This document shows positions 25,832 to 45,116 of a stretch of 64,000 nt of DNA, piece by piece (within the stretch, counting starts at the first letter, position 1; every line of letters starts with the position of its first letter). Source of the DNA: an uncultured Dehalococcoidales bacterium (lineage in GTDB: Bacteria > Chloroflexota > Dehalococcoidia > Dehalococcoidales > BS750m-G39); the NCBI GenBank assembly GCA_964396965.1, contig CAYNGD010000003.1, positions 106-64,105 of the forward strand, in the 5' to 3' direction. Made by a program: the position numbers and the translations under genes. The notes beneath the pieces were generated by a model, which was given only the letters and a program-made list of their open reading frames with translations, was not told the origin of the DNA and did no database searches.

Positions 25832-25846
25832 AAAACTATTGCCCCT

Positions 25847-26095
25847 CCATTTTTAACCGGTATTTTGTTTCCTATACCCGCCCGCCCAAAAGGCTTTTTA
25901 CCCCAAAAAATCTCCGATTTTTCGGGGGCCCCGTGTTCGCCTCTTAGACTTTCTTTCCCCACCCCGCTGAGCAGTGACGATATCCCCTTCCCCCCTCCCT
26001 CTAGGGGGTTAGAGTTTACAATCCCTAGTTTGGGGTGGGGTAATGAAGTGCTAGAAGCACAGCTTATGAGGGTGGGAGGGCGGGAAAAATAACAA
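25847..26095. repeat. Inverted-repeat element E3 (first 143 bp nearly identical to E4)
   Basis: C-tract 25871-25887, G-tract GGGTGGGAGGGCGGG 26070-26084; about 10 mismatches to 26662-26804. Confidence 0.88.
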
Positions 26096-26130
26096 CCGTT
26101 GATAAAGGGTAATGGGGTGGCTAGAACCCC

Positions 26131-26626: not shown

Positions 26627-26661
26627 ATTATGGCTAGAAGCATTTGTCACAATCCCCACCC

Positions 26662-26902
26662 CCATTTTTAACCGGTGTTTTGTTTCCCATACCCACCCGC
26701 CCAAAAGGTTTTTTACCCCAAAAAATCTCCGATTTTTCGGGGGCCCTGTGTTCGCCTCTTATACTTTCTTTCCTCACCCCGCTAAACAGTGACGACATCC
26801 CCTTTTCTCCTACCCCAAAGGGGAGAAATTATCCTCGTTCCCCTTTTCAAGAGAATTTTAAAGGCGCAGCCTTTGAGGGTGGGAGGGTGGGAAGAAAAAC
26901 GA
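26662..26902. repeat. Inverted-repeat element E4
   Basis: CCCATACCCACCCGCCC 26686-26702; AAAGGCGCAGCCTTTGA then GGGTGGGAGGGTGGG 26877-26891 and AAGAAAAAC. Confidence 0.88.
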
Positions 26903-26974
26903 CTTCCGGCAGAGATAAAGGGATTTTTAAATAAATTGCTATTATAGCCTGAGAGTTATAGAATAAACGAGTAA

Positions 26975-28112: not shown

Positions 28113-28461
28113 GGTCAAGTAAACTGGGTGACCGCCCCATTTTTGGGGAGGAAAGTCCGAGCTCCACCGGGCAGGATGCTGGCTAACGGCCAGGGGGGGC
28201 GACCCTACGGAGAGTGCCACAGAAACACACCGCCTCCTTCTGGGGGTAAGGGTGAAATGGTGAGGTAAGAGCTCACCGGCGGCTGGGTGACCGGTCGGCT
28301 GGGTAAACCCCATCCGGAGCAAGGCCAAATAGAGGGACACAGGGACGCCCGGCCTGTCCCCGGGTTGGCCGCTTGACCCTGGTGGTAACATCAGGGCTAG
28401 ATAGATGGTCACCGCCCCGATTCGTCGGGGTACAGAACTCGGCTTACAGGTTTACTTGGCC
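28113..28461 (+). ncRNA. rnpB: RNase P RNA (bacterial type A)
   Basis: GAGGAAAGTCC, AGTGCCACAGAAA, AAACCCC, GAGCAAGGCCAAATA, ACAGAACTCGGCTTA; 5'/3' ends pair (GGTCAAGTAAAC / GTTTACTTGGCC). Confidence 0.96.
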
Positions 28462-28558
28462 TTTTGACTTTTGGCACTTTTTGGCAACTAAGGTCATTAG
28501 TGATGCACCCTGTGCAAGGAAGTGCGCCAACTGTGCCGGTTCTGTTCGGTGTTGCCAT
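28409..28558 (-). pseudogene. N-terminal fragment of split integrase-like gene, int(N)
   Basis: AAGGAGG (28567-28573), 8 nt, ATG 28558; 41 codons run through the att core, then stop antisense within rnpB; frame matches the fragment beyond attR. Confidence 0.6.
28436..28462 (+). repeat. attL: 27-bp direct repeat (3' end of rnpB)
   Basis: AACTCGGCTTACAGGTTTACTTGGCCT, identical to 39320-39346. Confidence 0.93.
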
Positions 28559-28997
28559 CGTCTTGCCCTCCTTTTCATCATCTTCGCTTATGATTATAGA
28601 TTTGTCAATAGCCTCGTGTCTGAATGGGACAGATGGATAGCTTTAGTTCGACTTCAATAGGCCAATAGAAAGCAAAGGGGGGTCGGTACAACTATTTCTG
28701 ATCAAATAACTGTCTCTGATTATATGCCATAACTCTCACCTAATGCAGGCTCACTTCGCGGCTGGTTAAACAAAACAATGTTTTGTGACCTGTTTAGCCT
28801 TATATACTTAACTTAGTTGCACCATCTGGACTTTTGGTCAATCAATAGGCATTAATATGCCAAACGAAACAGATTGTCAGTACAATACTTCCTTGCTTGT
28901 TTTCCCCAGCAAGGAAATCTCTTGCCCAACCTATAGCTTGACATGGCAGGCATTTCGTTTATAGTATAGCAAAGACATTCAATTTTGGGATGGACAC

Positions 28998-29411
28998 ATG
29001 GTCAAGCCGAAAACGGCCAAGCCAGGAAATAAACCCTCTCGAAGCCGGGAAGCAGGCTACAGCATAAGAGGCCGCATCTGGGTTGAGAAAGACGGTGAAC
29101 TGTATTTGGGGTGGGGCCGAGTGATACTTTTGGAGCGATTGGATGAGATGGGGTCAATTGCCGCTGCCGCTCGTTCCATGGGGCTAACCTATCGCAATGC
29201 TTGGTTGTGGATAGAGTCCATGAACCGCTTGGCTCCTTCCCCTTTGGTTGAGAAGACAATCGGTGGGGGCGGCGGCGGTCATACCAAACTGACAGAGGAA
29301 GGGCATAAAGCCGTCGCCCTATACAAAGAGTTGCACCTCCATTTAGAGAAACTCTTGGAGCAAGAAGCCCTATACATTAACCACGAAAGTGGTGTCCCCG
29401 TATCCCCTTAA
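28998..29411 (+). CDS. ModE-like winged-helix regulator (DNA-binding domain only)
   Basis: GRIWVE, LGWGRVILL, GSIAAAARSMGLTYRNAW, GGGGGGHTKLT; no TOBE domains. Confidence 0.85.
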   Translation: MVKPKTAKPGNKPSRSREAGYSIRGRIWVEKDGELYLGWGRVILLERLDEMGSIAAAARSMGLTYRNAWLWIESMNRLAPSPLVEKTIGGGGGGHTKLTEEGHKAVALYKELHLHLEKLLEQEALYINHESGVPVSP

Positions 29412-29481
29412 CCTAATAATACTAGCTAAGAACCTTTCAAGGCACGTATCAGCTTTATTTAGCAGTTAAGCCGGATCCCAC

Positions 29482-29510
29482 TTGACAAGTCGCTATACCT
29501 TCTGTAATAT
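29482..29510 (+). promoter_or_regulatory. Sigma70 promoter of ABC uptake operon
   Basis: TTGACA-17-TAATAT. Confidence 0.65.
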
Positions 29511-29524
29511 ACACATAATTTAAA

Positions 29525-29546
29525 CTATATCTCCGCAGATATAGCG
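29525..29546. promoter_or_regulatory. ModE-box-like palindrome
   Basis: CTATATCT-CCGC-AGATATAGCG; related CGCTATAC...ATATAC at 29491-29512 overlaps the promoter. Confidence 0.55.
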
Positions 29547-29589
29547 CCTCAGAACTTTGCCGAGAATAAAACGAAGGAGGTCAATTAAT

Positions 29590-30675
29590 TTGAAAACCAA
29601 GGTCTTGACTATTTTTGCGGTTCTGATTCTAGTAGTTGCTCTAATAGCCAGTTTGACCGGTTGTCAGAGCACGGGCGCTCACAATGCTCCGGCAACACCC
29701 GCGCCTACCACCAGAACCATCACCGATATGTATGGCCGCCAGATCACCGTGCCCACCACGATTAATCGCGTGCTGGGCACCAGCCCGATAGAAATGGAGC
29801 TGGTCTATATGCTTGCCCCGGACAAGCTGGTCGGGCTGGCCGTCGAAGTTAAAGGCCAGCCCCCGCTGGTGCCGGAGAAGTACAGCAGCCTACCTGTAAT
29901 AGGGGGCTGGTTCGGCACCCAGACCGGCAACTACGAGACCTTCATCGCCGCTAAACCGGACATCATCCTAGAGGGCTTCGAATCCAGTATTGCCGAAAGG
30001 CAGGAGAAGTTCGGCTCCATCCCAGTGGTGGGCGTCAACGCCGGTGATTATCTAACGAACTACGAAAACGAGGTGCGCTTCCTGGGGGATCTGCTGGGGG
30101 TACAGGCGCAGGCCCAAAGCCTTATCACCTACTACAAGGATGCCATGCAGTATGTCGAAAACGTTGTTTCCGGTATCCCGGATAATGCCAGGGTAAAAGT
30201 GTACTATGCCGAAGGCAAGGATGGTTTCAGTACCGACCCCTCTGTTTCGATGCATACCAAGTTGCTGGAGTTCTGCGGCGGCGAGAACGTGGCCAAGGTT
30301 ACTTTAATACCGGGTTACGGCATGGCCGAGACATCCCTAGAGCAAATCGCACTGTGGGACCCGGACATGATTATCATCGGCCGCAGCAGTCAGGCAACAC
30401 TGTATCAAACGATTATGACCGACTCCAAATGGAGCCAGCTTAAAGCAGTGAAAAACAAGCAGGTCTTCCTTCGGCCGGATAACCCCCTCTCCTGGTTCGA
30501 TGGCCCGCCGGGGCCGTGCCAGATTATCGGCCTGTACTGGATGGTGCACACGCTGTATCCCGATAAAACTAAAGATTTGGACCTGGGGGCCAAGGTTAAA
30601 GAGTTCTACGCCAAATTTTTGCACTATCAACTGACCGATGCCGAGGTGGCCGGGCTGTTAGCCAATCCAAGCTAA
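29590..30675 (+). CDS. ABC transporter substrate-binding lipoprotein (class III, BtuF/FhuD/MolA-like)
   Basis: TTG start after AAGGAGG; lipobox LTGC; TITDMYGRQITVP, KPDIIL, WDPDMIII. Confidence 0.88.
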   Translation: MKTKVLTIFAVLILVVALIASLTGCQSTGAHNAPATPAPTTRTITDMYGRQITVPTTINRVLGTSPIEMELVYMLAPDKLVGLAVEVKGQPPLVPEKYSSLPVIGGWFGTQTGNYETFIAAKPDIILEGFESSIAERQEKFGSIPVVGVNAGDYLTNYENEVRFLGDLLGVQAQAQSLITYYKDAMQYVENVVSGIPDNARVKVYYAEGKDGFSTDPSVSMHTKLLEFCGGENVAKVTLIPGYGMAETSLEQIALWDPDMIIIGRSSQATLYQTIMTDSKWSQLKAVKNKQVFLRPDNPLSWFDGPPGPCQIIGLYWMVHTLYPDKTKDLDLGAKVKEFYAKFLHYQLTDAEVAGLLANPS

Positions 30676-30679
30676 AAAA

Positions 30680-31759
30680 ATGGTTACTGTGGAAAAGGTA
30701 AAGCCGGGCGCGAAGAACTCAAGCTCCGTCCAGGCAAAGAGACTGGGACTGGGCGGGGTATCTACCGGCGTTATTCTGGCCGGTATACTGGCAGTGCTTT
30801 TCATCCTCTCGTTCGCTATTGGCAGATACCCCGTCTCCCCCGTGGATGTGGTCAAGATACTGGTTTCTCATATTCTGCCTCTGCAGCATACTTGGCCCGA
30901 TATACTGAATACGATAGTGATACAGATAAGACTGCCGAGAATACTGGCGGCGATACTGGTAGGCGCCAGCCTAGCGCTGGCTGGCGCCTCCTTTCAGGGA
31001 CTCTTTCGCAACCCGCTGGTGTCTCCAGATATTCTGGGAGTCAGCACGGGCGCCGGCTTCGGCGCCGCCGTGGCTATCCTGCTCTCCTGGAACATGGTCA
31101 TGATACAGGTAGCCGCCTTCATCAGCGCTTTGGTGGCCGTGGGCGTTTCCTACGGCGTGAGCAAGATGGTCAAAGGTAACACTACACTGACCCTCATTCT
31201 GGCGGGCATGGCTATCGGCTCTCTCTTCGGTGCCTTACTTTCTCTGGTGAAATACGTCGCCGACCCCACCAACCAGTTGCCCACCATCACCTACTGGCTC
31301 ATGGGCAGTCTGGCTTCGGTAAGTACACGTGACCTGCTTTTCGCCGCTATCCCGATGCTGGTGGGTATCGCTGTGCTCATCCTTATCCGCTGGCGCTTCA
31401 ACGTGTTGGCGATGGGTGAGGAAGAAGCCATGGCACTGGGAGTAGAAACCAGCCGGCTGCGTGCCATAATCATCGTCTGCTGCACCATGATTACGGCCTC
31501 CTCGGTATGTATCAGCGGCACCATCGGCTGGGTGGGGCTGGTTATTCCCCATATCGGCCGCATGCTGGTAGGGCCGAACCACAGAAGACTCCTCCCCGTG
31601 AGTCTGCTGTTGGGAGCGGCTTACCTCCTGCTGATTGACAATATCTGCCGGGTAGTGGCCAGTGTGGAGATTCCGATAGGGATTCTCACGGCGATTGTCG
31701 GCGTGCCGTTCTTTATTTACCTGCTCAACAGGAGCGGAAGGGGGTGGGCATGGAGCTAA
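30680..31759 (+). CDS. FecCD/BtuC-family ABC permease
   Basis: IRLPRI, FRNPLVSPDILGVS, GTIGWVGLVIPH. Confidence 0.92.
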   Translation: MVTVEKVKPGAKNSSSVQAKRLGLGGVSTGVILAGILAVLFILSFAIGRYPVSPVDVVKILVSHILPLQHTWPDILNTIVIQIRLPRILAAILVGASLALAGASFQGLFRNPLVSPDILGVSTGAGFGAAVAILLSWNMVMIQVAAFISALVAVGVSYGVSKMVKGNTTLTLILAGMAIGSLFGALLSLVKYVADPTNQLPTITYWLMGSLASVSTRDLLFAAIPMLVGIAVLILIRWRFNVLAMGEEEAMALGVETSRLRAIIIVCCTMITASSVCISGTIGWVGLVIPHIGRMLVGPNHRRLLPVSLLLGAAYLLLIDNICRVVASVEIPIGILTAIVGVPFFIYLLNRSGRGWAWS

Positions 31760-32592
31760 TAGTAAATAATGCCGAATTCCACTATGATGCCATCGGAAAC
31801 AGCGGTTTTAAGAACATCAACTTCTCCCTGGAAGATGGCGAGGTAATGTCCATTCTCGGCCCCAATGGTTGCGGCAAGACGACCCTGCTGAAGTGCCTCA
31901 ACAACTTGATTAGACTCGGTAAAGGGAGCATAGCGGTGGATAATCAGGATGTATCGCGTCTGCCCAGAGCCGAGATAGCCAGGTCTATCGGCTATGTGCC
32001 GCAGATGCACCAGCCTGTCTTCCCCTTTACTGTCCTGGATACCGTGCTGGTGGGTAGAGCGCCTCACCTTGGGCTGCTGGCTTCCCCGAAACCGGAGGAT
32101 GTTAAAATTGCCGAACAATCCTTGGACATTATGGGCATTTATCATCTTAGGGATAGACCTTATACCCAGATAAGCGGCGGTGAGAGGCAACTGGTTATCT
32201 TTGCCCGGGTGTTGGCCCAGCAGCCGGCACTTCTCCTTCTGGATGAACCCACCTCGCACCTGGACTTTGGCAATCAGATACGCGTTTTGCACTTGGTGGA
32301 GGAGCTGGCGGCCACCGGCCTTCCTATCATCATGACTACCCACTTCCCTGACCACGCCTTTCTTATGTCCAGCAAGGTGGCTATCATGAAAAATGGTGAG
32401 TTCTTGGACTTTGGCCCGCCTGATGAAGTTATTACCGATGCCAATCTGGAGAAGGCCTACGGCATCAAGGTTAAGGTGCTGGATGTGGATGGCGCTATTA
32501 ACCGAAGAATATGCCTGCCCCTCAAGAGCGACCTTAACTCTATCTCAAACTTAAATATTCTATTGGAGAGACTGTATGGACGAAAACTTTGA
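31750..32592 (+). CDS. ABC transporter ATP-binding protein (FepC/BtuD-like)
   Basis: GPNGCGKTT, ISGGERQ, LLDEPT. Confidence 0.92.
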   Translation: MELIVNNAEFHYDAIGNSGFKNINFSLEDGEVMSILGPNGCGKTTLLKCLNNLIRLGKGSIAVDNQDVSRLPRAEIARSIGYVPQMHQPVFPFTVLDTVLVGRAPHLGLLASPKPEDVKIAEQSLDIMGIYHLRDRPYTQISGGERQLVIFARVLAQQPALLLLDEPTSHLDFGNQIRVLHLVEELAATGLPIIMTTHFPDHAFLMSSKVAIMKNGEFLDFGPPDEVITDANLEKAYGIKVKVLDVDGAINRRICLPLKSDLNSISNLNILLERLYGRKL

Positions 32593-33115
32593 TTTTCTTC
32601 TGCAAAAAGCCAAGGCTTTTCACGGTGATGTCTGTGCCGGTATAGTCCTGGGCACACGATTGACCATAGCCGGCATGAAGGCTCTGGGTATGGACCCCAC
32701 AAAGCGTAACCGCGACCTTATCGTTTTTGTGGAGATTGACCGCTGTATGTCAGACGCAGTGCAGGCCATTACGGGCTGTTCACTGGGGCACCGCACCCTG
32801 AAGTATATTAACTACGGCAGGTTTGCTGCCACTTTCTATGACATGAGTAGAAACCGGGCAGTGCGTGTCTCCCGACGTAATCTACCTATGGGTAATGAAG
32901 ACCTTGTTGAAGCATACACAAACGCTCCAGAAGAGGAGTTGATCAAACTGGAGGAGGTTAAAGTCAGCCTGGATAGTCATGACCTGCCGGGCAGGCCACA
33001 ATCGATGGAGGAGTGCAGCCATTGTGGCGAGCTTATCTTTGATAGTAGAGGGGTCAATGCGGATGGTAAGCTCTTGTGCCGGGCCTGTGCCAGTGGTGCT
33101 TATTATAGCCATTAA
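32576..33115 (+). CDS. FmdE family protein with C-terminal zinc finger
   Basis: FHGDVCAG, EIDRCMSDAVQ, CSLGHRTL, CSHCGE...CRAC. Confidence 0.88.
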   Translation: MDENFDFLLQKAKAFHGDVCAGIVLGTRLTIAGMKALGMDPTKRNRDLIVFVEIDRCMSDAVQAITGCSLGHRTLKYINYGRFAATFYDMSRNRAVRVSRRNLPMGNEDLVEAYTNAPEEELIKLEEVKVSLDSHDLPGRPQSMEECSHCGELIFDSRGVNADGKLLCRACASGAYYSH

Positions 33116-33143
33116 CCAAAGAGCCAGATAAGGAGGCAAAAAC

Positions 33144-33890
33144 ATGATGAAGCTAATAGACGACCTTATTTCAGCAGTACGTCATAATGCCGCTTCGGCT
33201 AAGGATGTGCGAGTGGGGGTCTCTTGGACCGGGGTATGGGGCAAGTACTGCGGGCTTTCCAAGACCTACGGTGTACCTTTTGTCCATGGCAACTACACCC
33301 GTGATATGGGCCACTTGACCGAAAAGACCACCCTGGAACTGGCGGAGTACGCCAAGTCCTGGAACCTGATTGAGGCCAGCATCGGGGTAGCCGCCATCAA
33401 TTCGATGATTAAGGCTAAAGGGGCAGTCAACATCAACGCACGGGAAATCATCCTGCGTAAGGGGCAGGGCAAACGGATAGCGATGTCGGGTGCCTTTCCC
33501 TTTACCCCGGAACTCAAAAAGCTGGCCAAGCAGTTGTGGGTGATGGAACTGGACCAGAGTCAGCTTAATCCAGCCCAAGGCATCATCACTGAAACTGCTG
33601 CTGAATACATCATTCCAGAGTGCGACATAGTGATTATCACCGGCTCCACACTCATCAATAAATCCATGGAAAGACTGCTGGAACTGGCCCGGTTAGCTAA
33701 AGCCTATACTGTTGTTCTCGGCCCCAGCACTCCACTGAGTGAAGTTCTTTTTGACTATGGCGCTCACTTGGTAGCAGGCGCTGAAGTCGTCCAGCCTGAA
33801 GCGGTGCTCAAGAAGCTAAGCCAGAGCGGGGGCATGCTGGATACCAAGGTCTGCCCGGGCGAAATTGCATTTAAGGTTCTGGAAAGATGA
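33144..33890 (+). CDS. DUF364 family protein (Rossmann-like, putative metal chelation)
   Basis: ASIGVAAINS, IITGSTLIN, LGPSTPL. Confidence 0.85.
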   Translation: MMKLIDDLISAVRHNAASAKDVRVGVSWTGVWGKYCGLSKTYGVPFVHGNYTRDMGHLTEKTTLELAEYAKSWNLIEASIGVAAINSMIKAKGAVNINAREIILRKGQGKRIAMSGAFPFTPELKKLAKQLWVMELDQSQLNPAQGIITETAAEYIIPECDIVIITGSTLINKSMERLLELARLAKAYTVVLGPSTPLSEVLFDYGAHLVAGAEVVQPEAVLKKLSQSGGMLDTKVCPGEIAFKVLER

Positions 33891-34537
33891 ACTACCAGAC
33901 CGACCCTCAGCGGATGAACCTGATTGCCAAACTCGCCTTTGCCCCGATATACCCCTATTTAGCCCAGCAGATAAGGGACAAGTTCGGCATAACCAATGGA
34001 ATATGCGTTGACCTTGGTTCGGGCCCGGCCTCACTGGCTATCGCCATAGCCCGCATCACCGATTTAACCATCTATTCCTTGGACATCCAGCCTGAGATGA
34101 TCAGTGTTGCTCGGCAGAATATCGCCGAAGCCGGGTTTTCTTCCCGTATACGCGCCGTAACTGCCGATGTGTGTCGGATGCCCTTTGAAGATAATTCGGT
34201 TGACCTGATGGTTAGCCGCGGCTCTATTTTCTTCTGGGAAGACCGGGTAACGGCTTTCCGGGAAATATACCGTGTCCTCCGGCCCGGCGGGGTAGCCTAC
34301 TGCGGCGGCAGCCTTGGTGACGATACCACGCGGGCGCAGGTAATAGCCGCCTTCAATACCATTGCTGAACTCCAACCATATAAGGAAGATTGGCAGCACA
34401 CAGTCAGCCGCAATATGAATAAGCTGACCTTGGAAACCATGCTCGAAGAACTGGGGCAGGCTGGCGTGCCGGGCACCGTGGAAAAAGAAAACGGAGGTAT
34501 CTGGGCACAGATAATCAAACTGAATAACGAGGCGTAA
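33887..34537 (+). CDS. Class I SAM-dependent methyltransferase
   Basis: VDLGSGPA, DVCRMPF, SRGSIFFW, VLRPGG. Confidence 0.88.
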   Translation: MNYQTDPQRMNLIAKLAFAPIYPYLAQQIRDKFGITNGICVDLGSGPASLAIAIARITDLTIYSLDIQPEMISVARQNIAEAGFSSRIRAVTADVCRMPFEDNSVDLMVSRGSIFFWEDRVTAFREIYRVLRPGGVAYCGGSLGDDTTRAQVIAAFNTIAELQPYKEDWQHTVSRNMNKLTLETMLEELGQAGVPGTVEKENGGIWAQIIKLNNEA

Positions 34538-34775
34538 TAATGGGCAACAGCGATATAACTCCGGGAAGCAGCCCGAGGAATATAGACTGGGCACTGGTAT
34601 GGTGGAACAAATGTCTTGAATAGGTCTAGTCTCCGCACCCCACAACTATTGGCGGTCCTAATTACCAAGAAGTCTTGTTCTGGTTCAGACCCAAGATAGT
34701 CCTAAGAATAGGATACGAGGTCTAACTTGACTTTTAAAGCTGTTTGCAGTAGTTCTTATAAGTATTCAGGAAAAG

Positions 34776-35558
34776 ATGAAAATAAAGCAAGCTTTTGATA
34801 TTCACACTGGTGAAGTGATAAGTCTCGTAGGTGGCGGTGGCAAAACGGCTCTGATGTTTGCCATAGCCCGTGAAATGGTTCTGGACAAGAACCGAATTAT
34901 TACCACGACCACCACCAAAATCTTCGAACCCTTACCTTCTCAGACACAAAAACTTCTTGTGGAGAAAAATGAGGTGAAACTGCTAAAGTTGCTGCTCCAG
35001 CAAATTGATAATTACACTCATATCACCTTAGCCAGTGAAAAACTAGGTTCGGGAAAGTTAAATGGCATCAACCCAGAGCTGGTGACAAAGCTAGCCGGAA
35101 TTGAGAAAATATCTTGCATTATTATTGAAGCAGACGGAGCAGCACACAAATCGCTGAAAGCACCAAACGCAACGGAGCCGGTAATGCCAGATAATACCTC
35201 CCTGGTCATACCAGTCGTGGGCGTTGATGCCTTGGGTTGCCGCTTGACTAAAGAAGAGGTTTTTAGACCAGAAATTGCTGCCGAGTTACTCGGAGTGCCC
35301 ATTGGCGAGGTTATGACAGCCGAGTTGATTGCTCGCTTGATAACTCACCCCCGGGGTATAACCAAAGGAAGCCCGGAAGGGGCAAGGATTATCCCGTTTA
35401 TAAATAAAATGGATTTAAATGAAGGTTTGTCAAAGGGAAGAATCATGGCAAATATGATTTTGGCAATGGGTCATTCTCAAATAAAGTACGTCGTGCTAGG
35501 TCAAGCTCAATCACCAAACCCTGTGACAGAAGTCATTCGGGAGAAAAATCATGGCTGA
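34776..35558 (+). CDS. yqeC: YqeC-family selenium/molybdenum hydroxylase accessory protein
   Basis: SLVGGGGKT, TTTTKI, EADGA..K.LKAP..TEPV.P. Confidence 0.87.
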   Translation: MKIKQAFDIHTGEVISLVGGGGKTALMFAIAREMVLDKNRIITTTTTKIFEPLPSQTQKLLVEKNEVKLLKLLLQQIDNYTHITLASEKLGSGKLNGINPELVTKLAGIEKISCIIIEADGAAHKSLKAPNATEPVMPDNTSLVIPVVGVDALGCRLTKEEVFRPEIAAELLGVPIGEVMTAELIARLITHPRGITKGSPEGARIIPFINKMDLNEGLSKGRIMANMILAMGHSQIKYVVLGQAQSPNPVTEVIREKNHG

Positions 35559-35818
35559 TATCTATGCCGATTGTCCTTAAAGACATTGCTGCTTCACTGT
35601 ACCTGCAAGTCTCAAGTACGCTCCTGACATTAAACAACAGTGATTTTAAAATTATCCCCTCTGAGGAGAGACTCCAACATAATGGAATCGCGTTCAAAGC
35701 CGATTACTTATAAGACTGAACATTACGCTATCTTGTGTCGGGGGGTTTTGGGCGTGTGAGGGCAGGCTACGTGCCGAAGTATATCATTGCTTATTCTCTC
35801 TCCGCAGTCTTTAGCAGG

Positions 35819-35848
35819 TTGACAAATACCTATTGCATAAAATATAAT
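35819..35848 (+). promoter_or_regulatory. Sigma70 promoter of Fur-family gene
   Basis: TTGACA-18-TATAAT. Confidence 0.65.
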
Positions 35849-35864
35849 TGCAACTAGGTGCAAT
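35847..35864. promoter_or_regulatory. Putative Fur-family operator, copy 1
   Basis: ATTGCAACTAGGTGCAAT, one mismatch to the palindrome at 36315. Confidence 0.75.
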
Positions 35865-35868
35865 AACC

Positions 35869-36282
35869 ATGAGCTGCTTGGAAACATTAAGAGAAAAAGA
35901 CCTGAAGCTAACTCCCCAGAGAAGACTGATAATAGACATTATTAACGATGCTCATTCACATCTTACGGGAGAAAATATTATCGACTATGTACAGAGCAAG
36001 ATGCCAAGAGTAAATAAGTCTACCATTTACCGCACTCTGGATATCTTGGAACAAGCCGGATGCGTTTTTAAGAGTAAATACGGCAATCATTTCATCTACC
36101 ATCACGCTGAAGAAGGCCATCATCATCACCTGGTTTGCCGGAGGTGCGGTAAAACCGTGGAATGTTCGGAAAATCTCTTCAGTCAGGTTGAGCAGTCTGT
36201 GGCGGAAAAATATGGCTTCCAGGTTAGTTTCAGACATATCGTGATGAATGGTCTTTGTGGTAACTGTAAAAATCAAGGTTAG
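35869..36282 (+). CDS. Fur-family metal-sensing regulator (Zur/Nur-like)
   Basis: LTPQRRLI, STIYRTL, HHHHLVCRRCG, GLCGNC. Confidence 0.9.
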   Translation: MSCLETLREKDLKLTPQRRLIIDIINDAHSHLTGENIIDYVQSKMPRVNKSTIYRTLDILEQAGCVFKSKYGNHFIYHHAEEGHHHHLVCRRCGKTVECSENLFSQVEQSVAEKYGFQVSFRHIVMNGLCGNCKNQG

Positions 36283-36314
36283 CTGAAGGGTACAGATTAT
36301 TTTTTTGCTCTTGT

Positions 36315-36332
36315 ATTGCAACTAGTTGCAAT
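36315..36332. promoter_or_regulatory. Putative Fur-family operator, copy 2 (perfect palindrome)
   Basis: ATTGCAACT-AGTTGCAAT upstream of the cbiM SD. Confidence 0.8.
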
Positions 36333-36359
36333 TAGAATAAGGAGGTAAAGGAGTATCAG

Positions 36360-37391
36360 ATGCACATACCTGATGGTTATTTGAGTCCGGCCACATGTGG
36401 AACTATGTACGCCGTCTCCGTACCTTTCTGGTATCTAGCCGTTAATCGTGTCCGCAAGTTTCTTACCACCCGCACTGTACCGGTGCTGGCCCTTTTCGCC
36501 GCTTTCTCCTTTGTTTTAATGATGTTCAATGTCCCTATACCCGGGGGAACGACCGCGCATGCGGTGGGTGCAACGCTTCTGGCCATCGTACTGGGTCCCT
36601 GGTCCGCTGTGTTGGGTGTTTCGGTAGCGCTGGGAATTCAGGCATTATTTTTCGGCGATGGTGGCCTGCTCACCTTTGGTGCTAACTGCTTTAACATGGC
36701 TATCGTCATGCCGCTGGTAGGATATTTTATTTATAAAGTAATATCGAGCAATTCGGAGGCTGGTTCGCCCCGCCGTGTGCTGGGGGCAGTCATAGGGAGC
36801 TATGTAGGTATAGTCGCCGCTGCTGCTGCAGCCGGAATTGAGCTCGGTATTCAGCCTGCCCTATTTCACGCTGCCAATGGCACCCCGCTCTATTCTCCAT
36901 ACAGTCTGGGCGTGGCTCTGCCGGCGATGCTAATTGCACACCTGGCTGTGGCAGGTCCAATTGAAGCCGCGGTAACGGGTGGGGTAGTCGCCTATTTGCA
37001 ACGATCTCATACCAGCCTTATTAAGGCAGATAGTTCGAGGAAGAAAGAGGGCAAACTCTGGGTTCTCTGGGGGGCTCTCGGGGTGTTAGCCTTGGCTGCT
37101 CCGCTAGGACTCCTAGCATCCGGTACTGCTTGGGGTGAGTGGGGAGTAGATGAACTTCAGAAGATGGGCCTAGGCTTCATACCCCAGGGGCTGCAGAAAT
37201 TGGCAGGCTGGTGGCCAGCTCCGCTGCCAGACTATGGCTTCCCGAGAATGGGAGCAGTCATCGGCTATATCCTGTCTGCTGTGGTAGGCATGGCTCTGGT
37301 GGCTTTCCTCCTCTGGATGCTTGGCCGGTGGCTCAGTCGCAAGAACTTATCCAAGCCAAGGCTGTCCCCCAAAGAGGAACCGGAAGGGTGA
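36360..37391 (+). CDS. cbiM: Ni/Co ECF transporter substrate component CbiM/NikM fused to PDGLE domain
   Basis: MHIPDGYL, GGTTAH, FGDGG, WGEW, PLPDY. Confidence 0.92.
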   Translation: MHIPDGYLSPATCGTMYAVSVPFWYLAVNRVRKFLTTRTVPVLALFAAFSFVLMMFNVPIPGGTTAHAVGATLLAIVLGPWSAVLGVSVALGIQALFFGDGGLLTFGANCFNMAIVMPLVGYFIYKVISSNSEAGSPRRVLGAVIGSYVGIVAAAAAAGIELGIQPALFHAANGTPLYSPYSLGVALPAMLIAHLAVAGPIEAAVTGGVVAYLQRSHTSLIKADSSRKKEGKLWVLWGALGVLALAAPLGLLASGTAWGEWGVDELQKMGLGFIPQGLQKLAGWWPAPLPDYGFPRMGAVIGYILSAVVGMALVAFLLWMLGRWLSRKNLSKPRLSPKEEPEG

Positions 37392-38206
37392 AAGGCGAAG
37401 GTTTTCTTACCAAGAACATCTCCAGTTTAACCCACACCCTGGAATCTATAATTTCGACCGAAGATTTGTGCCGCGCTCCGGGATTACTCCAGGGCTTAGA
37501 CTCAAGGGTTAAAGTGGTGACCTTCCTGCTTTTCATTGTCATGGTTGGCCTGGCACGGAGTCTATCGGCACTGGCGATAATATTTGTCCTGATCTTGACT
37601 TTGAGTTTCCTCTCTAAAGTGCCGCTGGTGTTTTTCCTCAAGCGTGTTCTCATCTTCATCCCTATCTTTACCGCGGTGATTGCCCTGCCGGCTCTCTTTA
37701 TCACACCGGGCTCACCTCTGGTAGCCCTTGCCGGTAAGATAATCATTACTGAGCAAGGCGCCCGCACTGCCGGGCTCCTGTTCCTTAGAGTAACGGACTC
37801 ACTGTCTTTTGGGGTGCTCCTCATTCTGACTACACCCTGGGCCAGCATACTCGTGGCATTACGTTGGCTTCGTATACCATCGCTACTCGTAGACATCCTG
37901 GGCATGACTTACCGTTATATATTTCTCTTATTGCATACTACCAATTCTATGTTCCTAGCGCGCCGAAGCCGCACCATAGGGAGCTTCTCCAGCGGAGAAA
38001 ACCGACGATGGCTGATTAGGGCCTTAACCACAACGATGGCCAAGTCACAATACCTTAGCGAGGAAGTATATCTCGCTATGCTTTCCCGGGGTTACCAGGG
38101 AGAAACACGTGTCTTGAATGACTTTAGAATAAGGCGCCGGGATTTATTATGGGTAGCCTTTGCCTTGATTGCCGCATCTATCTTATTCTGGGGTAACTAT
38201 CTATGA
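37388..38206 (+). CDS. cbiQ: ECF transporter transmembrane component CbiQ/NikQ
   Basis: LQGLDSRVK, MTYRYIFLL, AMLSRGY; GTG start overlaps cbiM stop. Confidence 0.9.
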   Translation: MKGEGFLTKNISSLTHTLESIISTEDLCRAPGLLQGLDSRVKVVTFLLFIVMVGLARSLSALAIIFVLILTLSFLSKVPLVFFLKRVLIFIPIFTAVIALPALFITPGSPLVALAGKIIITEQGARTAGLLFLRVTDSLSFGVLLILTTPWASILVALRWLRIPSLLVDILGMTYRYIFLLLHTTNSMFLARRSRTIGSFSSGENRRWLIRALTTTMAKSQYLSEEVYLAMLSRGYQGETRVLNDFRIRRRDLLWVAFALIAASILFWGNYL

Positions 38207-39027
38207 GCATATTTGACACAGGGCATATTTTCGAGGCAAAGAACCTGAGCTATGATTATCCAGGAAATGTTCCGGCTTTGAGACAGGTCAACTTTACCAC
38301 TGGAGCGGGAGAATTGATAGCCCTGGTAGGAGTGAATGGCTCTGGGAAGAGCACTCTACTCAAGCTACTGGACGGACTTATATTTCCCACAGACGGAGAG
38401 GTGCTGGCTTTTGGGCATCCTCTTTCCGAAGAGACATTAAAAGACGGGACTTTTGTTGCAGAATTTCGCCGCAAAGTCGGGCTGGTGTTTCAGGACCCGG
38501 ATGTGCAGCTCTTTTCTTCCACGGTCTGGGACGAAGTAACCTTCGGCCCACTTCAGTTGGGAATTCCCAAGGAGGAAGTAGTATCCAGAGGTCTGGAAGC
38601 CCTCAAACTGCTCAACATCGCTCATCTTCGAGAGCGTCCCCCGTATCTTCTCTCTGGTGGGGAGAAAAAGAAGGTCTCCCTGGCTTCCGTGCTTTCATTG
38701 CATCCCCAGGTTCTCCTCCTTGACGAGCCTACTACTGGCCTGGATCCGCAGAGTCAGGGAAATCTTATTGATTTCCTGTTTCAATGGGCCGATGAGGGAA
38801 GGAGCGTGGTTTTCAGTACTCAAGACCTAGATATTGTGGAGGAGATTGCTACCCGTGTGATTGTCATGGGAGCCGAACATAACATTCTGGCTGACGGTAA
38901 GCCGGAAGAATTCCTGTCTGATCCAGATTTTCTCCTTCGGACTAACCTTGTCCATGAACACTCACACAGGCATAGGGAACTCGTACACCGCCACCCACAC
39001 CTGCACGAGCACCAGCACCAGCACTAA
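38203..39027 (+). CDS. cbiO: ECF transporter ATPase CbiO/NikO with His-rich tail
   Basis: GVNGSGKST, LSGGEKK, LLDEPT, HEHSHRH...HRHPHLHEHQHQH. Confidence 0.92.
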   Translation: MSIFDTGHIFEAKNLSYDYPGNVPALRQVNFTTGAGELIALVGVNGSGKSTLLKLLDGLIFPTDGEVLAFGHPLSEETLKDGTFVAEFRRKVGLVFQDPDVQLFSSTVWDEVTFGPLQLGIPKEEVVSRGLEALKLLNIAHLRERPPYLLSGGEKKKVSLASVLSLHPQVLLLDEPTTGLDPQSQGNLIDFLFQWADEGRSVVFSTQDLDIVEEIATRVIVMGAEHNILADGKPEEFLSDPDFLLRTNLVHEHSHRHRELVHRHPHLHEHQHQH

Positions 39028-39083
39028 GGAATATTACCAGAACGGAACCAACGATATAGATGTACTTAGTTATTGCCTGGCCT

Positions 39084-39319
39084 TCATGAATTCTCCACAC
39101 GTGATCTGCCCCCCAGCCATTTTTGATAGCCGGTGATAATCTGCTGATAGCGCTCGATAGTTTTGGGGTCCCGGTCGCTTTGCGCTAGCTCCTGTGATAT
39201 AATTCGAAAGGGTCTGCCATATCAAGGCAATTGTAGTGCATGCCAGCTGGCATACTGTGCACAAGCTGAAAAGCGATACTTTTGGCAATTGCCTGAATTT
39301 GGCTTTCGGTTAGTCTTGT
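39084..39319 (-). pseudogene. Decayed integrase-like fragment, int(C), N-terminal SAM-like domain
   Basis: TRLTESQIQAIAKSIAF...DPFELYH, 1-nt deletion, then QELAQSDRDPKTIERYQQIITGYQKWLGGR; catalytic domain absent. Confidence 0.6.
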
Positions 39320-39346
39320 AACTCGGCTTACAGGTTTACTTGGCCT
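39320..39346 (+). repeat. attR: displaced copy of rnpB 3' end
   Basis: AACTCGGCTTACAGGTTTACTTGGCCT, identical to 28436-28462. Confidence 0.93.
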
Positions 39347-39490
39347 GACTTTAAGGCAAAGAACTCTCTCCCGCCTCTACTTTTCTTTTATTGCGCCTAC
39401 CGTAGTGTCAACATCATTGACAATATTCATCAATATGATTTAAACTATTAACAATTAGTCTATAGTTAATATAATGTTGGGGAAAAGGGA

Positions 39491-39949
39491 ATGATAATGG
39501 ACAAAGCAGAGTCAATTAAGGGAATTGTTGAACTGCAGCGGCAGGCAGGTCGGATTCTGGGGCAGTATGCCGCCAGTGTCTGGCTTGATTCGGGCCTTAC
39601 CCTGGCCCAGCTCAGAAGCCTGTTCTTGATTACTAAAAAGGGAACTACCAACTTTAGGAAGCTGGCAGAAGCTTTGGGAGTCACCCCCGCCGGCGTTACC
39701 CGCATTGTTGACCGCCTGGTGGAGCAGGGGCTGGTCAGCCGGAGGGAGGACCCCAGTGACCGCCGCATGATGGTATTGCAGCCAACGGTTAAGGGGCAAA
39801 CCATCATAGCTAACCTCAGGGAGAGCGGCATAAATCAAATGACCCGGATACTGACGCTTCTCAGCCTGGAAGAGCTTGATGCTCTGTCTCAAGGGCTTTC
39901 CGCGTTTATAAGGGCGGCCAAAACCTACCAGGGAGAGACTCATCCATGA
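39491..39949 (+). CDS. MarR family regulator
   Basis: LTLAQLRSL, VTRIVDRLVEQGLVSRREDPSDRR. Confidence 0.92.
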   Translation: MIMDKAESIKGIVELQRQAGRILGQYAASVWLDSGLTLAQLRSLFLITKKGTTNFRKLAEALGVTPAGVTRIVDRLVEQGLVSRREDPSDRRMMVLQPTVKGQTIIANLRESGINQMTRILTLLSLEELDALSQGLSAFIRAAKTYQGETHP

Positions 39950-40950
39950 ATATGATTGAAGTGGAGGGGCTGACCAAGCGCTTTGGTGAATTCACGGCGG
40001 TGGATCATGTCTCTTTTCAGGTTGAAAAGAGCGAGATACTCGGCTTCCTCGGCCCCAATGGAGCCGGCAAATCGACAACATTACGCATGCTCTGCACCCT
40101 GCTGCGGCCAACAGAAGGCAGCGCCAGGGTAGCCGGTTTTGATATCGCCAGTGAACCGGACAAGGTGAGAGGACACATCGGGCTGGTGGCTGAGAAGCTC
40201 ATCCTTTACGACCAGCTGACCGCTGAGGAGAACCTTACCCTTTTCGGCAGGCTGAACAACCTGCCCGAAGCGCAAATCAGACAGGGAATAGATAAGTGGC
40301 TTGGCCGTCTCCATATGGAGGCATGGCGCAAGTATAAGGTAGGGGCATTTTCAACAGGCATGAAGCAGCGGATAAACGTTGCCCGCGCCCTTCTCCATCA
40401 CCCCGACGTCCTCTTCCTTGACGAGCCTACCCTGGGACTCGACCCGCAGACGACCAGGGCCATTCACGAATTTATTATCGAACTGGGCCAGGAAGGCATC
40501 ACCACCGTGCTCACCACTCATGACATGGTTGAAGCCGGGGCTCTCTGTCATCGCATCGCCATTATTGACCGGGCCAAGATAGTTGCCCTTGATACCACCG
40601 GTAATTTGAAGCGGCTGGTCTCTAACGGCGATACGACGGTAGTTGATATGGAAATCTCCAACCTTAGCCAGTCGATGCTCTCTCAGATGAAGGATGTGGA
40701 GGCGGTTGTCTCCGTAGCGCAAACTGATTCGTACCGGGTGAGAATCAACATCAAGGGTAGCGATGCGGTCGGCCGGATTGTGAGCGCTGTCGTCGCTGGT
40801 GGGGGTAATATCCGGGCGATAAACACGGCGGAACCGAGCCTGCAGGATGTCTTCCTGTATCTTACCGGGCGTGAGATGCGCGACCAGGCGACTGAGAGGG
40901 TTCCTTCAGTTCGGGGACGCCGCTGGCGAAGAACCTCAAGAGTGAGATAA
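39946..40950 (+). CDS. ABC exporter ATP-binding protein (DrrA-like)
   Basis: GPNGAGKST, FSTGMKQR, LDEPTLGLDP, PSLQDVFLYLTG. Confidence 0.92.
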   Translation: MNMIEVEGLTKRFGEFTAVDHVSFQVEKSEILGFLGPNGAGKSTTLRMLCTLLRPTEGSARVAGFDIASEPDKVRGHIGLVAEKLILYDQLTAEENLTLFGRLNNLPEAQIRQGIDKWLGRLHMEAWRKYKVGAFSTGMKQRINVARALLHHPDVLFLDEPTLGLDPQTTRAIHEFIIELGQEGITTVLTTHDMVEAGALCHRIAIIDRAKIVALDTTGNLKRLVSNGDTTVVDMEISNLSQSMLSQMKDVEAVVSVAQTDSYRVRINIKGSDAVGRIVSAVVAGGGNIRAINTAEPSLQDVFLYLTGREMRDQATERVPSVRGRRWRRTSRVR

Positions 40951-40958
40951 TAAAGAAG

Positions 40959-42155
40959 GTGATTGGTATGCTTGGTGATTTCAGAAGGGTGGTCATGCAT
41001 AGCCTCCGCCTCGGAATTAAAGACCTTTTGGTCTTCGCCCGTGACCGGATGATGCTTATCTCCTTTATAATCATGCCTATCTTCATGATGATAATGATGG
41101 GCTTTATCTTCCCGTCACAGAACGTTTTGAAGAATGCCCCGTTGGGCATCGTCAATCTCGACGAGGGCCCGCTCGGTGCCCAGATAAATTCGGCAGTCCA
41201 GCAGCTAAACCGGCAGCAGAGTGAACGGATGTTCGCCATAACCTATCTCCGCAGCAAGGGCATGGCCATAGAACAGATAAAGGAGCAGATGATAAATGGC
41301 GCCATAATTATCCCTGCCGACTTCTCGGCCAAGATAGCCGATGGCGAGCAGGCCTCGGTTATTATCATCACCGACCAGTCCAACCCCCAGGTATCGGCGG
41401 GTATCACCGGGGTACTGGACGCGCTCATGTCCACCACGGCCAGCCAGCTGGCCGCCAAGAACGTAGCCGCCCTGGTGCCGGGTGTGAGCGACCCGCAGTC
41501 GCTGGTTATGCCGTTTACGGTAGAGACCGAGGGCACCGTTCCGGGCAAGCCCAACTATTTCGAGTTCATCGCTCCCGGCCTGATGGCAATGGTCATCATG
41601 TTTGCCGCTATGACCGGCCTGGCGGCTTCCATATCGAGAGAACGCGAACTGGGTACCCTGGATGGCATCCTGTCAGCTCCCATTAGCCGGCTTTCTATCG
41701 TGCTGGGCAAGAGCTTCGCCCAGGTGGTGCGCGGACTGCTGCAGGCCATGCTCGCCCTGATTCTGGCTATAGTGCTCTTTGGTGTCGTCGTTCACGGCAG
41801 CTACGCCCTGCTGTTTTTACTACTGTTGCTGACCGTATTCTCTTTTATCGGCATCGGCATCATAATATCGGCGCTGGCTTCGGAACAGGAGACCGCCATG
41901 ACGATAATGATGACCATCACCTTTCCCATGCTCTTTCTTTCCGGTGCCCTCTTTCCCATTCAACAGATGCCGACCGCTGTCCAGGCTGTTTCTAAGTTTC
42001 TGCCGCTGACCTATGCGGTTAACGCCCTGCGCAAGTGCATCGTGCTCGGCACCGGCATCACCGGGATGATGACGGAGGTCTGGGTGATGCTCGGTTTCGG
42101 CATTGTTTTTACGGTGATCGCAATACCTGTGTTCAATCGGATTATTAGCCGGTAA
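40959..42155 (+). CDS. ABC-2 type permease
   Basis: ERELGTLDGIL, PMLFLSGALFPI, PLTYAVNALR. Confidence 0.9.
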   Translation: MIGMLGDFRRVVMHSLRLGIKDLLVFARDRMMLISFIIMPIFMMIMMGFIFPSQNVLKNAPLGIVNLDEGPLGAQINSAVQQLNRQQSERMFAITYLRSKGMAIEQIKEQMINGAIIIPADFSAKIADGEQASVIIITDQSNPQVSAGITGVLDALMSTTASQLAAKNVAALVPGVSDPQSLVMPFTVETEGTVPGKPNYFEFIAPGLMAMVIMFAAMTGLAASISRERELGTLDGILSAPISRLSIVLGKSFAQVVRGLLQAMLALILAIVLFGVVVHGSYALLFLLLLLTVFSFIGIGIIISALASEQETAMTIMMTITFPMLFLSGALFPIQQMPTAVQAVSKFLPLTYAVNALRKCIVLGTGITGMMTEVWVMLGFGIVFTVIAIPVFNRIISR

Positions 42156-42190
42156 CAGACTCAAGGCATAACAGTTGGAGGAACTAACCG

Positions 42191-43573: not shown

Positions 43574-43669
43574 CCCTTAGCTGATGTCACTTTTGCTTGT
43601 TGCCGAATTTCCCCCTCTCGGCTATGATAACCCTGTCTGCCCAAGCGACTTTCAAGGAGAGTGAGTCTG

Positions 43670-45085: not shown

Positions 45086-45116
45086 TATTAACAAGGTGGG
45101 GGTAAAGTAGGTGGGG

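Follow-up and report, generated by a model that had tools for sequence, protein, structure and literature searches.

The window analysed here, i.e., a stretch of 64,000 nucleotides from an uncultured Dehalococcoidales bacterium, contains a complete gene for the bacterial class-A RNase P RNA, rnpB, at positions 28116-28462 of the plus strand (Rfam RF00010, 311.4 bits, E = 4.7e-101; the match is untruncated and spans model positions 1-367 of 367). The gene encodes a ribozyme, is essential and universally conserved, and is present in a single copy. Its last 27 nt, AACTCGGCTTACAGGTTTACTTGGCCT, which the Rfam alignment places in the 3' strands of P4 and P1, occur in two exact copies on the plus strand, one at the end of rnpB (28436-28462, hereafter the attL core) and one as an isolated duplicate (39320-39346, the attR core). 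The copies are identical at 27 of 27 positions and are spaced by 10,884 bp, start to start; no further copy with up to two mismatches was detected in the window, and 100 shuffles gave 0 matches. Similar sequences, TTTGACTTTTGGCA and GACTTTAAGGCA, are found downstream of the two copies. The earlier note on this DNA, made from the sequence alone, had described this recurrence, the similarity beyond both copies, the correspondence to the P4/P1 strands and an RNase P RNA that stays intact despite the insertion, and each of these observations was reproduced.

The island between the repeats spans 10.9 kb. Its conserved left end (28463-28579), an element-derived arm that we designate P', contains two TTTTGGCA motifs and shares ~81% identity with the region that follows rnpB in two relatives, L003 and L004, despite unrelated cargo. 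Six-frame translation also revealed a putative 49-codon ORF on the minus strand (28409-28558; MATPNRTG...KVKRPSKPVSRV...), which starts in the island, crosses the core and extends into rnpB. The cargo genes are all on the plus strand. The first encodes a ModE-like HTH regulator (28998-29411; NCBIfam TIGR00637, ModE repressor domain, E = 1.3e-23, below the curated cut-off; Pfam HTH_1, weak) and is followed by a BtuCDF/FecCDE-type ABC importer (29557-32592; Pfam Peripla_BP_2, FecCD and ABC_tran), which consists of a binding protein (29557-30675), a permease (30680-31759) and an ATPase (31744-32592). The best NCBIfam matches of this importer were to corrinoid, heme and iron-chelate transporters, all under the curated cut-offs. 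Next come an FmdE-domain/zinc-finger protein, a DUF4213+DUF364 "heavy-metal chelation" protein and a SAM methyltransferase (32576-34537; Pfam), the selenium cofactor biosynthesis protein YqeC (34776-35558; NCBIfam TIGR03172, 169.8 bits against a cut-off of 73; Pfam YqeC), and a Fur-family metalloregulator (35848-36282; Pfam FUR, E = 8e-27), the gene of which is flanked by the 21-nt inverted repeats I14 (35845-35865 and 36314-36334). The last cargo genes specify an ECF-type cobalt/nickel importer, CbiM(-PDGLE), CbiQ and CbiO (36360-39027; NCBIfam CbiM NF005598, 413 bits against a cut-off of 401; Pfam CbiM, PDGLE, CbiQ and ABC_tran).

According to the Pfam and NCBIfam assignments, all genes between the repeats are thus metal-related or accessory, in agreement with the earlier claim of accessory metal functions. 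The intergenic repeat family said to be missing from the island is indeed missing, which is weakly informative at ~8 loci per 64 kb (P ~0.15-0.2). Domain and tblastn searches found no intact integrase, excisionase or transfer gene within the island. A prophage was considered and rejected, as the island carries no phage genes (virion, terminase, lysis).

Immediately inside the attR core, on the minus strand, lies the conserved right arm of the island, P (39105-39319), which is the 5' end of a tyrosine integrase gene, truncated and frameshifted (a pseudogene). The identity of this remnant was established by homology to intact relatives; neither the remnant nor the peptide produced by its fusion across a reconstituted attP matched Pfam or PHROG profiles. 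The remnant aligns with L081:150-1037, an intact ORF of 295 aa (Pfam Phage_integrase, E = 1.2e-36), at 79% amino-acid identity. Together with the core (241 nt), it shares 95% identity with the beginning of P0006, an intact integrase (293 aa) that occupies the equivalent position in L083, whereas the identity between the window and host genes on the L083 contig is only 72-78%, from which it follows that the element is much more recent than the split of the hosts. About 215 nt of the integrase 5' end are left in the window, matches of related integrases in tblastn cover residues 1-53 only, and the alignments reveal a 1-nt deletion near 39193. The description of the locus as a tyrosine-integrase island is accordingly upheld in that an integrase remnant adjoins the distal repeat, but an integrase is no longer encoded. 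Having lost it, the island cannot move by itself, and because the gene is both deleted and frameshifted we regard the island as fixed and non-autonomous. A second tyrosine recombinase in the window (14280-15203) was rejected as the integrase of the island; it is XerC/D-like, with 28-30% identity to the integrases related to the remnant.

The structure was compared with independent assemblies. A 13.2-kb Logan contig, SRR14802574_183180, is 100% identical to the window over 29491-41660 and begins, by its own coordinates, at ~28433; the right junction is covered by a contig from a second run as well. It is conceivable that the second 27-nt copy arose during assembly or binning, by the joining of rnpB-adjacent sequences from different strains, as the DNA evidently comes from a metagenome-assembled genome and the Logan contig starts 3 nt before the first repeat, which indicates a branch of the assembly graph at that point. 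However, both repeats and the complete island between them are contained in this one contig, which extends into the MarR gene cluster described below, the right junction is reproduced in the second run, and JGI contigs of another lineage have the same architecture. A fault in one particular assembly thus does not account for the structure, and we consider this explanation extremely unlikely.

Relatives with an empty rnpB site, which the earlier note had proposed to look for, were found. The two relatives with the highest flank identity, L006 and L007, have no second repeat; their match to the window ends at 28465-28467 and resumes, after 12-58 bp, at 43606-43651, and the gene for an S41 peptidase (window position 43661) follows rnpB within 12-60 bp. 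In six other relatives, 0.5-1.2 kb separate rnpB from the S41 peptidase gene, and the second repeat is absent in at least eight relatives across the group. Exact-protein look-ups for same-species contigs with an empty site returned no record for the RNase H-like protein and only window-identical fragments for CT398 and MarR. The same site is occupied in L003 and L004 by a 9.3-kb island, the repeat of which is degenerate; its ends are homologous to those of the island in the window, but its cargo is unrelated.

Compared to the relatives with empty sites, the inserted DNA in the window amounts to 15.1 kb (28463-43605), of which 4.3 kb are outside the repeat pair. The proposed extent of the island, 28436-39346, thus holds for the repeat-bounded 10.9 kb but not for the total insertion. 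The additional segment (39347-43605, plus strand) encodes a MarR regulator, an ABC ATPase, an ABC-2 permease and an NPCBM_assoc surface protein (Pfam). It is absent from L006, L007, L004 and L083, in all of which the S41 peptidase gene comes directly after rnpB or the distal repeat, and this 4.3-kb MarR/ABC-2 segment is a separate insertion. A tandem island was rejected, as no third copy of the core was found at up to three mismatches. We do not claim a target duplication around this segment; its C/T-rich ends each resemble the native flank, not each other.

The distribution among relatives might also be read in the opposite direction, i.e., the segment might be ancestral and lost from the "empty" relatives by deletion between the repeats, with no recent acquisition. 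A precise deletion is possible between direct repeats, and a related island with the same ends is present in a more distant relative (L004). Against this stand the 95% identity of the remnant to its counterpart in L083 with host genes at 72-78%, the GC content of the island (0.504 versus 0.58-0.59 in the flanks, i.e., 8 points lower), the unrelated cargo of the two islands, and the absence of a second repeat in the relatives across the group; moreover, the repeat itself would still need an integration event. An ancestral segment is thus very improbable, and the GC content and the identity of the remnant identify the island as horizontally acquired. Cobalt/nickel uptake and the uptake of a chelated metal or corrinoid in this organism, together with the regulators of these systems, are encoded by horizontally acquired accessory DNA and not by core metabolism.

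We consider it highly probable that the island was inserted at the 3' end of rnpB by a tyrosine integrase and is now a fixed, non-autonomous block. An integrative element with an Xer-like tyrosine integrase would have recombined its attP with the rnpB 3' end; at the left junction (attL), the element's own copy of the last ~27 nt would have made rnpB complete again, and the displaced end of rnpB would have remained at the right junction (attR). In the subtype of the window, the integrase gene would lie just inside attR and read inward, away from the core. Later, in the lineage of the window, the integrase would have been deleted beyond approximately codon 50 and frameshifted, and the outcome would be a fixed metal-acquisition block of 10.9 kb, both att cores of which are still identical. 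The repeat, the intact rnpB, the remnant, the empty sites of the closest relatives, the horizontal origin and the link between rnpB and the integrase clade described below are observed; the recombination event itself, the position of the crossover, and the timing and manner in which the metal cargo joined the element are inferred.

The remnant belongs to a previously unrecognised clade of integrases that comprises at least 100 proteins from Dehalococcoidales/Chloroflexota (family set, n = 108). These are short, two-domain, Xer-like proteins of ~290 aa; the catalytic residues R, K, H, R, H and Y are invariant in an alignment of 12 family members, the best profile is that of archaeal XerA (NF040815, below the curated cut-off), and the best solved relative is Pyrococcus XerA (4a8e). 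IMG/VR contained no close member of the clade, the best match being 36-38% identical. The whole clade is associated with rnpB: in 7 of 7 contexts read (L081, L083, L086, L088, L093, L096 and L097), with differing neighbourhoods, the integrase is next to the rnpB 3' end or its repeat. Every contig with an intact integrase ends inside the element, and no second core was found in L086, L088, L096 or L097, the contigs of which end too early. Intact clade integrases are located next to rnpB 3' ends in many other genomes, so that the scan for rnpB 3' duplications next to integrases suggested by the earlier note came out in its favour. The metal cargo of the window has no resemblance to the backbone genes beside the intact integrases (L083, L097). 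The core is found in either orientation, and the conserved N-terminal region of the integrases starts 18-27 nt from it; in the sense subtype, the integrase starts within the rnpB 3' end or a few nucleotides after it, without a promoter-sized spacer. The rnpB 3' end is translated in the called N-terminus of 23 of the 108 family proteins, although an open frame through the core is found at about the chance expectation. The note had called rnpB a rarely noted target; a full-text literature search yielded no paper in which rnpB serves as an attachment site, with the qualification that large catalogues may list it, and the matches merely cite rnpB as a phylogenetic marker. The mechanism is thus a known one, acting on a target for which we found no report and through a previously unrecognised clade of integrases.

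The island is bounded by the att sites of an autonomous element family and has no recombinase of its own, as is the case for the cis-mobilisable elements (CIMEs) and accretion products at the attachment sites of ICEs, in which integrase-less DNA is enclosed by the att sites of an autonomous element and the ends are conserved while the cargo differs. It is possible, although we consider it doubtful, that the island is likewise cis-mobilisable, with functional attL, attR and arms, that it is moved in trans by an integrase of the clade, and that the exchange of cargo proceeds through tandem islands that accrete and are deleted at rnpB. The identity of the cores is consistent with this possibility, and so is the conservation of ~117 bp inside attL and ~215 bp inside attR, which are 81-95% identical between islands with unrelated cargo in hosts with genes that are only 72-78% identical; this could also reflect recent common ancestry of the elements. 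In one stretch, counted by eye, the 17 substitutions between the remnants of the window and L004 are distributed over the codon positions as 5, 7 and 5, and such an even spread speaks against maintenance of the remnant as a protein. Around the core of the reconstructed attP, a stretch of 84 nt contains five direct TTGGC motifs, compared to a background of 1.4 per kb, and a host lineage with ~93% identity carries an intact (L083) and a truncated (L003) variant at the same site. Conversely, no excised form, within-population polymorphism or helper element in the same genome was observed, and the lack of a resident helper sets the island apart from CIMEs. Further, the sole other recombinase in the window is the XerC/D-like one described above, and the cores of L004 have drifted (three mismatches), as expected of an immobile relic.

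A bolder proposal, which seems unlikely to us, is that the att core is physically coupled to the integrase start: in the sense subtype, the integrase would be expressed from the RNase P RNA transcript, as an extension of its 3' end, the antisense subtype, to which the window belongs, would have a split integrase gene, and integrase-less islands with both arms retained would be cassettes moved in trans. In SSV1-type archaeal integrases, the int gene is split by integration. If attP is reconstituted, the frames in the window are compatible with this topology: the putative minus-strand ORF from the left end would continue in frame through the core into the remnant, and in the antisense subtype the ribosome-binding site, the start codon and the first ~40 codons may lie across attP (28409-28558). 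If true, integration would sever the integrase from its translation start, i.e., an SSV1-like on/off switch in a bacterium. However, in contrast to the SSV1 type, the integrases of the clade are complete, Xer-like proteins without this N-terminal extension, the host is a bacterium, and the L004 counterpart of the left-end ORF, which has kept the ribosome-binding site, the ATG and the first codons, is broken. Among 5.8 billion proteins, none starts with the N-terminus of the left-end ORF; the search with the attP-fusion peptide found a single hypothetical protein of 71 aa, which led to L003-L005.

Searches for islands that are limited to tRNA and tmRNA genes would miss rnpB islands, and rnpB accompanied by a repeat of its 3' fragment is a simple marker of strain-variable DNA in Dehalococcoidia, which are known mainly from fragmented metagenome-assembled genomes. 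To our knowledge, there is essentially no genetics for this class, and the short Xer-like enzyme, with a conserved ~27-bp attB in related genomes, is a candidate tool for site-specific integration.

Islands and prophages inserted by tyrosine integrases in the 3' ends of tRNA and tmRNA genes (P4/HPI/Islander type) are the known paradigm. The rnpB island shares with them the repeat of the 3' end of a stable RNA, the restoration of the gene at attL, an integrase gene next to one att site (a remnant in the window, intact in relatives), the sporadic occurrence among relatives, the deviant GC content and the decay of the integrase after fixation. It differs in its target, the catalytic RNA of RNase P, and its integrase, unlike those of the P4 and lambda types, has no arm-binding domain. 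The ssrA islands of Dehalococcoides mccartyi, which the earlier note had invoked as a tyrosine-integrase precedent, are not one, as their enzyme is DsiB, a large serine recombinase of the CcrB family, which is accompanied by DsiA (McMurdie et al. 2011, PMC3146451). Nevertheless, they are found in the same class of bacteria and also occupy a single-copy, essential stable-RNA gene as a hot spot, with a 3'-end repeat of 20-27 bp, variable cargo behind a conserved integration end and a recombinase ORF that overlaps the att site, and their integrase-less units have been discussed as cis-mobilisable (PMC3146451). In contrast, the present system has a tyrosine recombinase and rnpB as the target, and no tandem array was seen; a DsiB-type island is not indicated, as the island contains no serine recombinase, the window contains no tmRNA gene, and the relatives of the remnant belong to Phage_integrase. 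Another parallel is phage phiEf11, which integrates into ffs, the 4.5S RNA gene, with a core that is also 27 nt long and also lies in a housekeeping RNA gene other than tRNA or tmRNA (PMC12540744, 2025). In that case, the RNA gene and the host are different, the element is a bona fide prophage, and 74 nt separate the attP core from the terminus of the ORF for the integrase (PMC12540744). That example illustrates that RNA-gene targets other than tRNA and tmRNA are still reported as new, and the integrase clade on rnpB represents a new class of target beside the tRNA/tmRNA paradigm.

The last 27 nt of rnpB (AACTCGGCTTACAGGTTTACTTGGCCT) recur exactly 10,884 bp downstream, as the earlier note had claimed: a search of the window returned two exact copies, at 28436-28462 and 39320-39346, both on the plus strand, and no third copy, even with two mismatches allowed; shuffled sequence gave no match in 100 shuffles. 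A complete class-A RNase P RNA was identified by Rfam at 28116-28462 on the plus strand (311 bits, model positions 1-367 of 367, not truncated). It is the only RNA gene that Rfam detected in the window, which contains no tRNA or tmRNA genes. Because the complete rnpB ends at 28462, the first copy represents the last 27 nt of the gene, including the 3' strands of P4 and P1, and the second copy is an isolated fragment. The full-length match bears out that RNase P RNA stays intact, and the similar sequence said to follow both copies is present in the window. A Logan contig, assembled independently, is 100% identical to the window across 29491-41660 and by its coordinates starts at ~28433; reaching from there to 41660, it places both repeats on one contig. 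The right junction was reproduced by a contig from a second run.

Scanning species-representative genomes with the neighbouring RNase H-like protein placed the source organism among the uncultured Dehalococcoidales and yielded about twenty relatives that have the CT398-RNase H-rnpB synteny. The check proposed earlier, a search for relatives with an empty rnpB site, was successful: the flanks of L006 and L007 are higher in identity to the window than those of any other relative, and in both a block that matches the window as far as 28465-28467 gives way, after a gap of 12-58 bp, to a second block matching the window from 43606-43651, which contains an S41 peptidase gene with its promoter. The distance between rnpB and this gene is 0.5-1.2 kb in six more relatives, and neither these six nor L006 and L007 have a second copy of their own rnpB tail.

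At the right junction, six-frame translation revealed an open frame that exits the core on the minus strand (RPSKPVSRV-TRLTESQIQAIAKS...MPAGMHYNCLDMADPF), resumes after a 1-nt deletion as ...ELAQSDRDPKTIERYQQIITGYQKWLGG, and then reaches a stop. This fragment has no match in profile libraries; it was identified as an integrase because related contigs carry homologous intact ORFs. For example, in L081, the remnant sequence runs on into an intact 295-aa ORF (Pfam Phage_integrase, E 1.2e-36), and an intact orthologue of 293 aa, P0006, occupies the identical position in L083, with the distal core on one side and the S41 peptidase gene on the other. When the L081 and L083 integrases were compared to the window by tblastn, only residues 1-53 matched, at 39105-39262; thus, all that remains of this tyrosine integrase gene in the window is roughly its first 50 codons. 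The catalytic residues R, K, H, R, H and Y are invariant in a 12-member family alignment, and the nearest named relatives of the family are archaeal XerA-type recombinases, a kinship indicating a short enzyme of two domains, neither of them a separate arm-binding domain. It should be noted that the window also encodes an XerC/XerD-like chromosomal tyrosine recombinase (14280-15203, minus strand, 307 aa), which is only 28-30% identical to this integrase clade.

With the L081 integrase as the query, 108 proteins were retrieved, ~90 of them at >=50% identity, all from Chloroflexota/Dehalococcoidales metagenomes. The called ORF contains the translated 3' end of rnpB in 23 of the 108: the antisense reading (SKPVSRV), which is also that of the window, occurs in 5 of these, where the integrase lies at attR and reads inward, and the other 18 have a reading in one of the sense frames, with the integrase directly downstream of rnpB. 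Four members (L086, L088, L096 and L097) were chosen for analysis of DNA context irrespective of this translation signal, and in all of them only 0-60 nt separate the end of a full-length rnpB from the integrase; their upstream neighbourhoods contain PolA, CT398, radical SAM and hypothetical genes, and PemK/RHH, respectively. The integrase was located at the rnpB 3' end or its repeat in 7 of 7 contexts, L081, L083 and L093 included. In another Dehalococcoidales lineage (L093-L095), rnpB is directly followed by a truncated, sense-type clade integrase of 166 aa (L093, 10764-11303), a second independent example of integrase decay at rnpB. Next to the integrase, the intact elements of L083 and L097 have a common backbone: a small ORF and, at 11411-12606 in L083 and 11520-12715 in L097, a second Phage_integrase-like protein of 230 aa, into which a zinc ribbon is inserted, followed by a protein of 168 aa. 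We also observed a 388-aa clade protein (P0070, from a 1.14-Mb ENA contig), in which a CT398-like coiled-coil N-terminus is fused in frame to the integrase at the MADPF motif, implying a deletion or misassembly that spans the RNase H gene and rnpB.

The same site carries a second island in a more distant relative (L003, L004 and L005, and also L082), where rnpB is followed by a 9.3-kb segment ending in a degenerate rnpB tail (3 differences between the two tail copies), with the S41 peptidase gene directly after the distal copy. Its cargo, a molybdenum hydroxylase with Fe-S and FAD subunits, an alcohol dehydrogenase and a CoA transferase, showed no kinship with that of the window, even by tblastx. 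The ends are common to the two islands, at 81% over the ~117 bp that follow attL and at 87% over the ~240 bp that lead up to attR and include it. Both truncated islands stop matching the intact integrase at one L083 coordinate, within ~5 nt; in L004 and L082 the remnant picks up again at about codon 126 (an internal deletion), whereas that of the window does not. In one stretch counted by eye, the 17 substitutions between the window and L004 remnants are spread evenly across codon positions, suggesting that the conserved ends are not being kept as protein. Alternatively, they may be retained for a DNA-level function, as att arms, which would be the basis of a cis-mobilisable island, or may simply reflect recent common ancestry. 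The L083 host is ~93% identical to that of L003, and L083 has the intact integrase and different neighbouring genes; thus, island content is polymorphic within a narrow lineage. Furthermore, the remnant and core of the window are 95% identical to L083, compared to 72-78% for the host genes on that L083 contig. The element is therefore much younger than the host divergence, and simple vertical inheritance of the island is excluded. On the other side of rnpB in L004-like lineages, a few kb upstream of CT398-RNase H-rnpB, there are Terminase_6C-domain genes and PemK/RHH toxin-antitoxin pairs (L091, 4639-6093; L092, 1509-2963; L093, 7353-8225), which may be a prophage remnant.

Integration would proceed by recombination of an attP bearing the rnpB-tail copy with the chromosomal rnpB. 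The L004 lineage has a G/A difference close to the core's 3' edge, where attL carries the host-like base and attR the element-like one; this hints at strand exchange at the extreme 3' end of the core, unless the difference is a later mutation. The attP reconstructed by joining both island ends contains five direct TTGGC motifs within 84 nt around the core, compared to 1.4 per kb in the window; these are candidate recombinase-binding sites, and one overlaps conserved codons. A left-end ORF of 49 codons (28409-28558, minus strand) shares its frame, read across the core, with the remnant, and its ribosome-binding site and ATG are conserved in L004, weakly suggesting that the integrase ORF could span attP in the circular form. 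However, the left-end ORF is broken in L004, no database protein carries its N-terminus, and open frames through the core are no commoner than expected by chance.

Between the repeats lie twelve genes, all co-directional and none with a recombinase domain: a ModE-like HTH regulator, a BtuCDF/FecCDE-type ABC importer (three genes), an FmdE/zinc-finger protein, a DUF4213-DUF364 'metal chelation' protein, a SAM methyltransferase, YqeC, a Fur-family regulator, and CbiM(-PDGLE), CbiQ and CbiO; YqeC and CbiM score above the NCBIfam curated cut-offs. The GC content of the island is 0.504, versus 0.58-0.59 on either side. A 21-nt inverted repeat (TAATTGCAACTAGGTGCAATA / TATTGCAACTAGTTGCAATTA, 35845-35865 and 36314-36334) brackets the Fur-family gene upstream of cbiM, and its arms are candidate operators for the island's own metalloregulator. 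The metal cargo and the backbone adjoining the intact integrases (L083 and L097) share nothing; by analogy with the proposal for Dehalococcoides ssrA islands (PMC3146451), the cargo could plausibly have entered via tandem islands undergoing accretion and deletion.

A further segment of 4.3 kb (39347-43605, GC 0.544) separates attR from the S41 peptidase gene and carries genes for a MarR regulator, an ABC ATPase, an ABC-2 permease and an NPCBM_assoc/S-layer-like surface protein. It is missing from L006, L007, L004 and L083, its first ~25 nt still resemble the native rnpB flank, and it contains neither a third core copy nor a recombinase; we treat it as a separate insertion at the rnpB hot spot. 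Elsewhere in the window, a family of intergenic repeats, often paired in inverted orientation, has C-rich arms and G-rich arms (TTCCCATACCCnCCCnCCCAAA..., GGGTGGGAGGGTGGGAAG) and occurs at ~1909, 23691, 25844-26096, 26659-26907, 44874-45087, 46653-46708, 47924-48129 and 58378-58693, with no member in 26.9-44.8 kb. Rfam gave no match to the family, which is a candidate REP/MITE-like element or terminator. Four tandem repeats of 81-84 nt (17338-17652, 61-75% identical) are probably inside a large repetitive gene.

The proposal of an island integrated at rnpB is thus supported by the repeat, the integrase remnant, the empty sites and the horizontal origin, and we consider it very likely that the island was inserted by a clade-specific tyrosine integrase and has since been disabled. 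Duplication of the att site at the 3' end of a stable-RNA gene, the decayed remnant of an adjoining tyrosine integrase gene, relatives with empty sites and a horizontal origin are all in evidence, and the mechanism is the same as that of integrative islands targeting tRNA and tmRNA genes. The closest system, from the same bacterial class, is that of the Dehalococcoides ssrA islands, which the earlier note had cited as a tyrosine-integrase precedent; this does not hold, as those islands use a serine recombinase (PMC3146451). Given the different recombinase and the different target RNA gene of that system, the window island does not belong to that family. Integration into ffs, another housekeeping RNA gene, was published as novel in 2025 (PMC12540744); in full-text literature searches, no paper was found that describes rnpB as an attachment site, although rnpB may have been listed earlier in a large database. 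The strategy is therefore familiar, the target is one for which no report was found, and the integrases form a sizeable, previously unrecognised, target-specific clade. A known principle is extended and nothing is overturned; the practical use lies in mapping variable DNA and in genetic tools for Dehalococcoidia.
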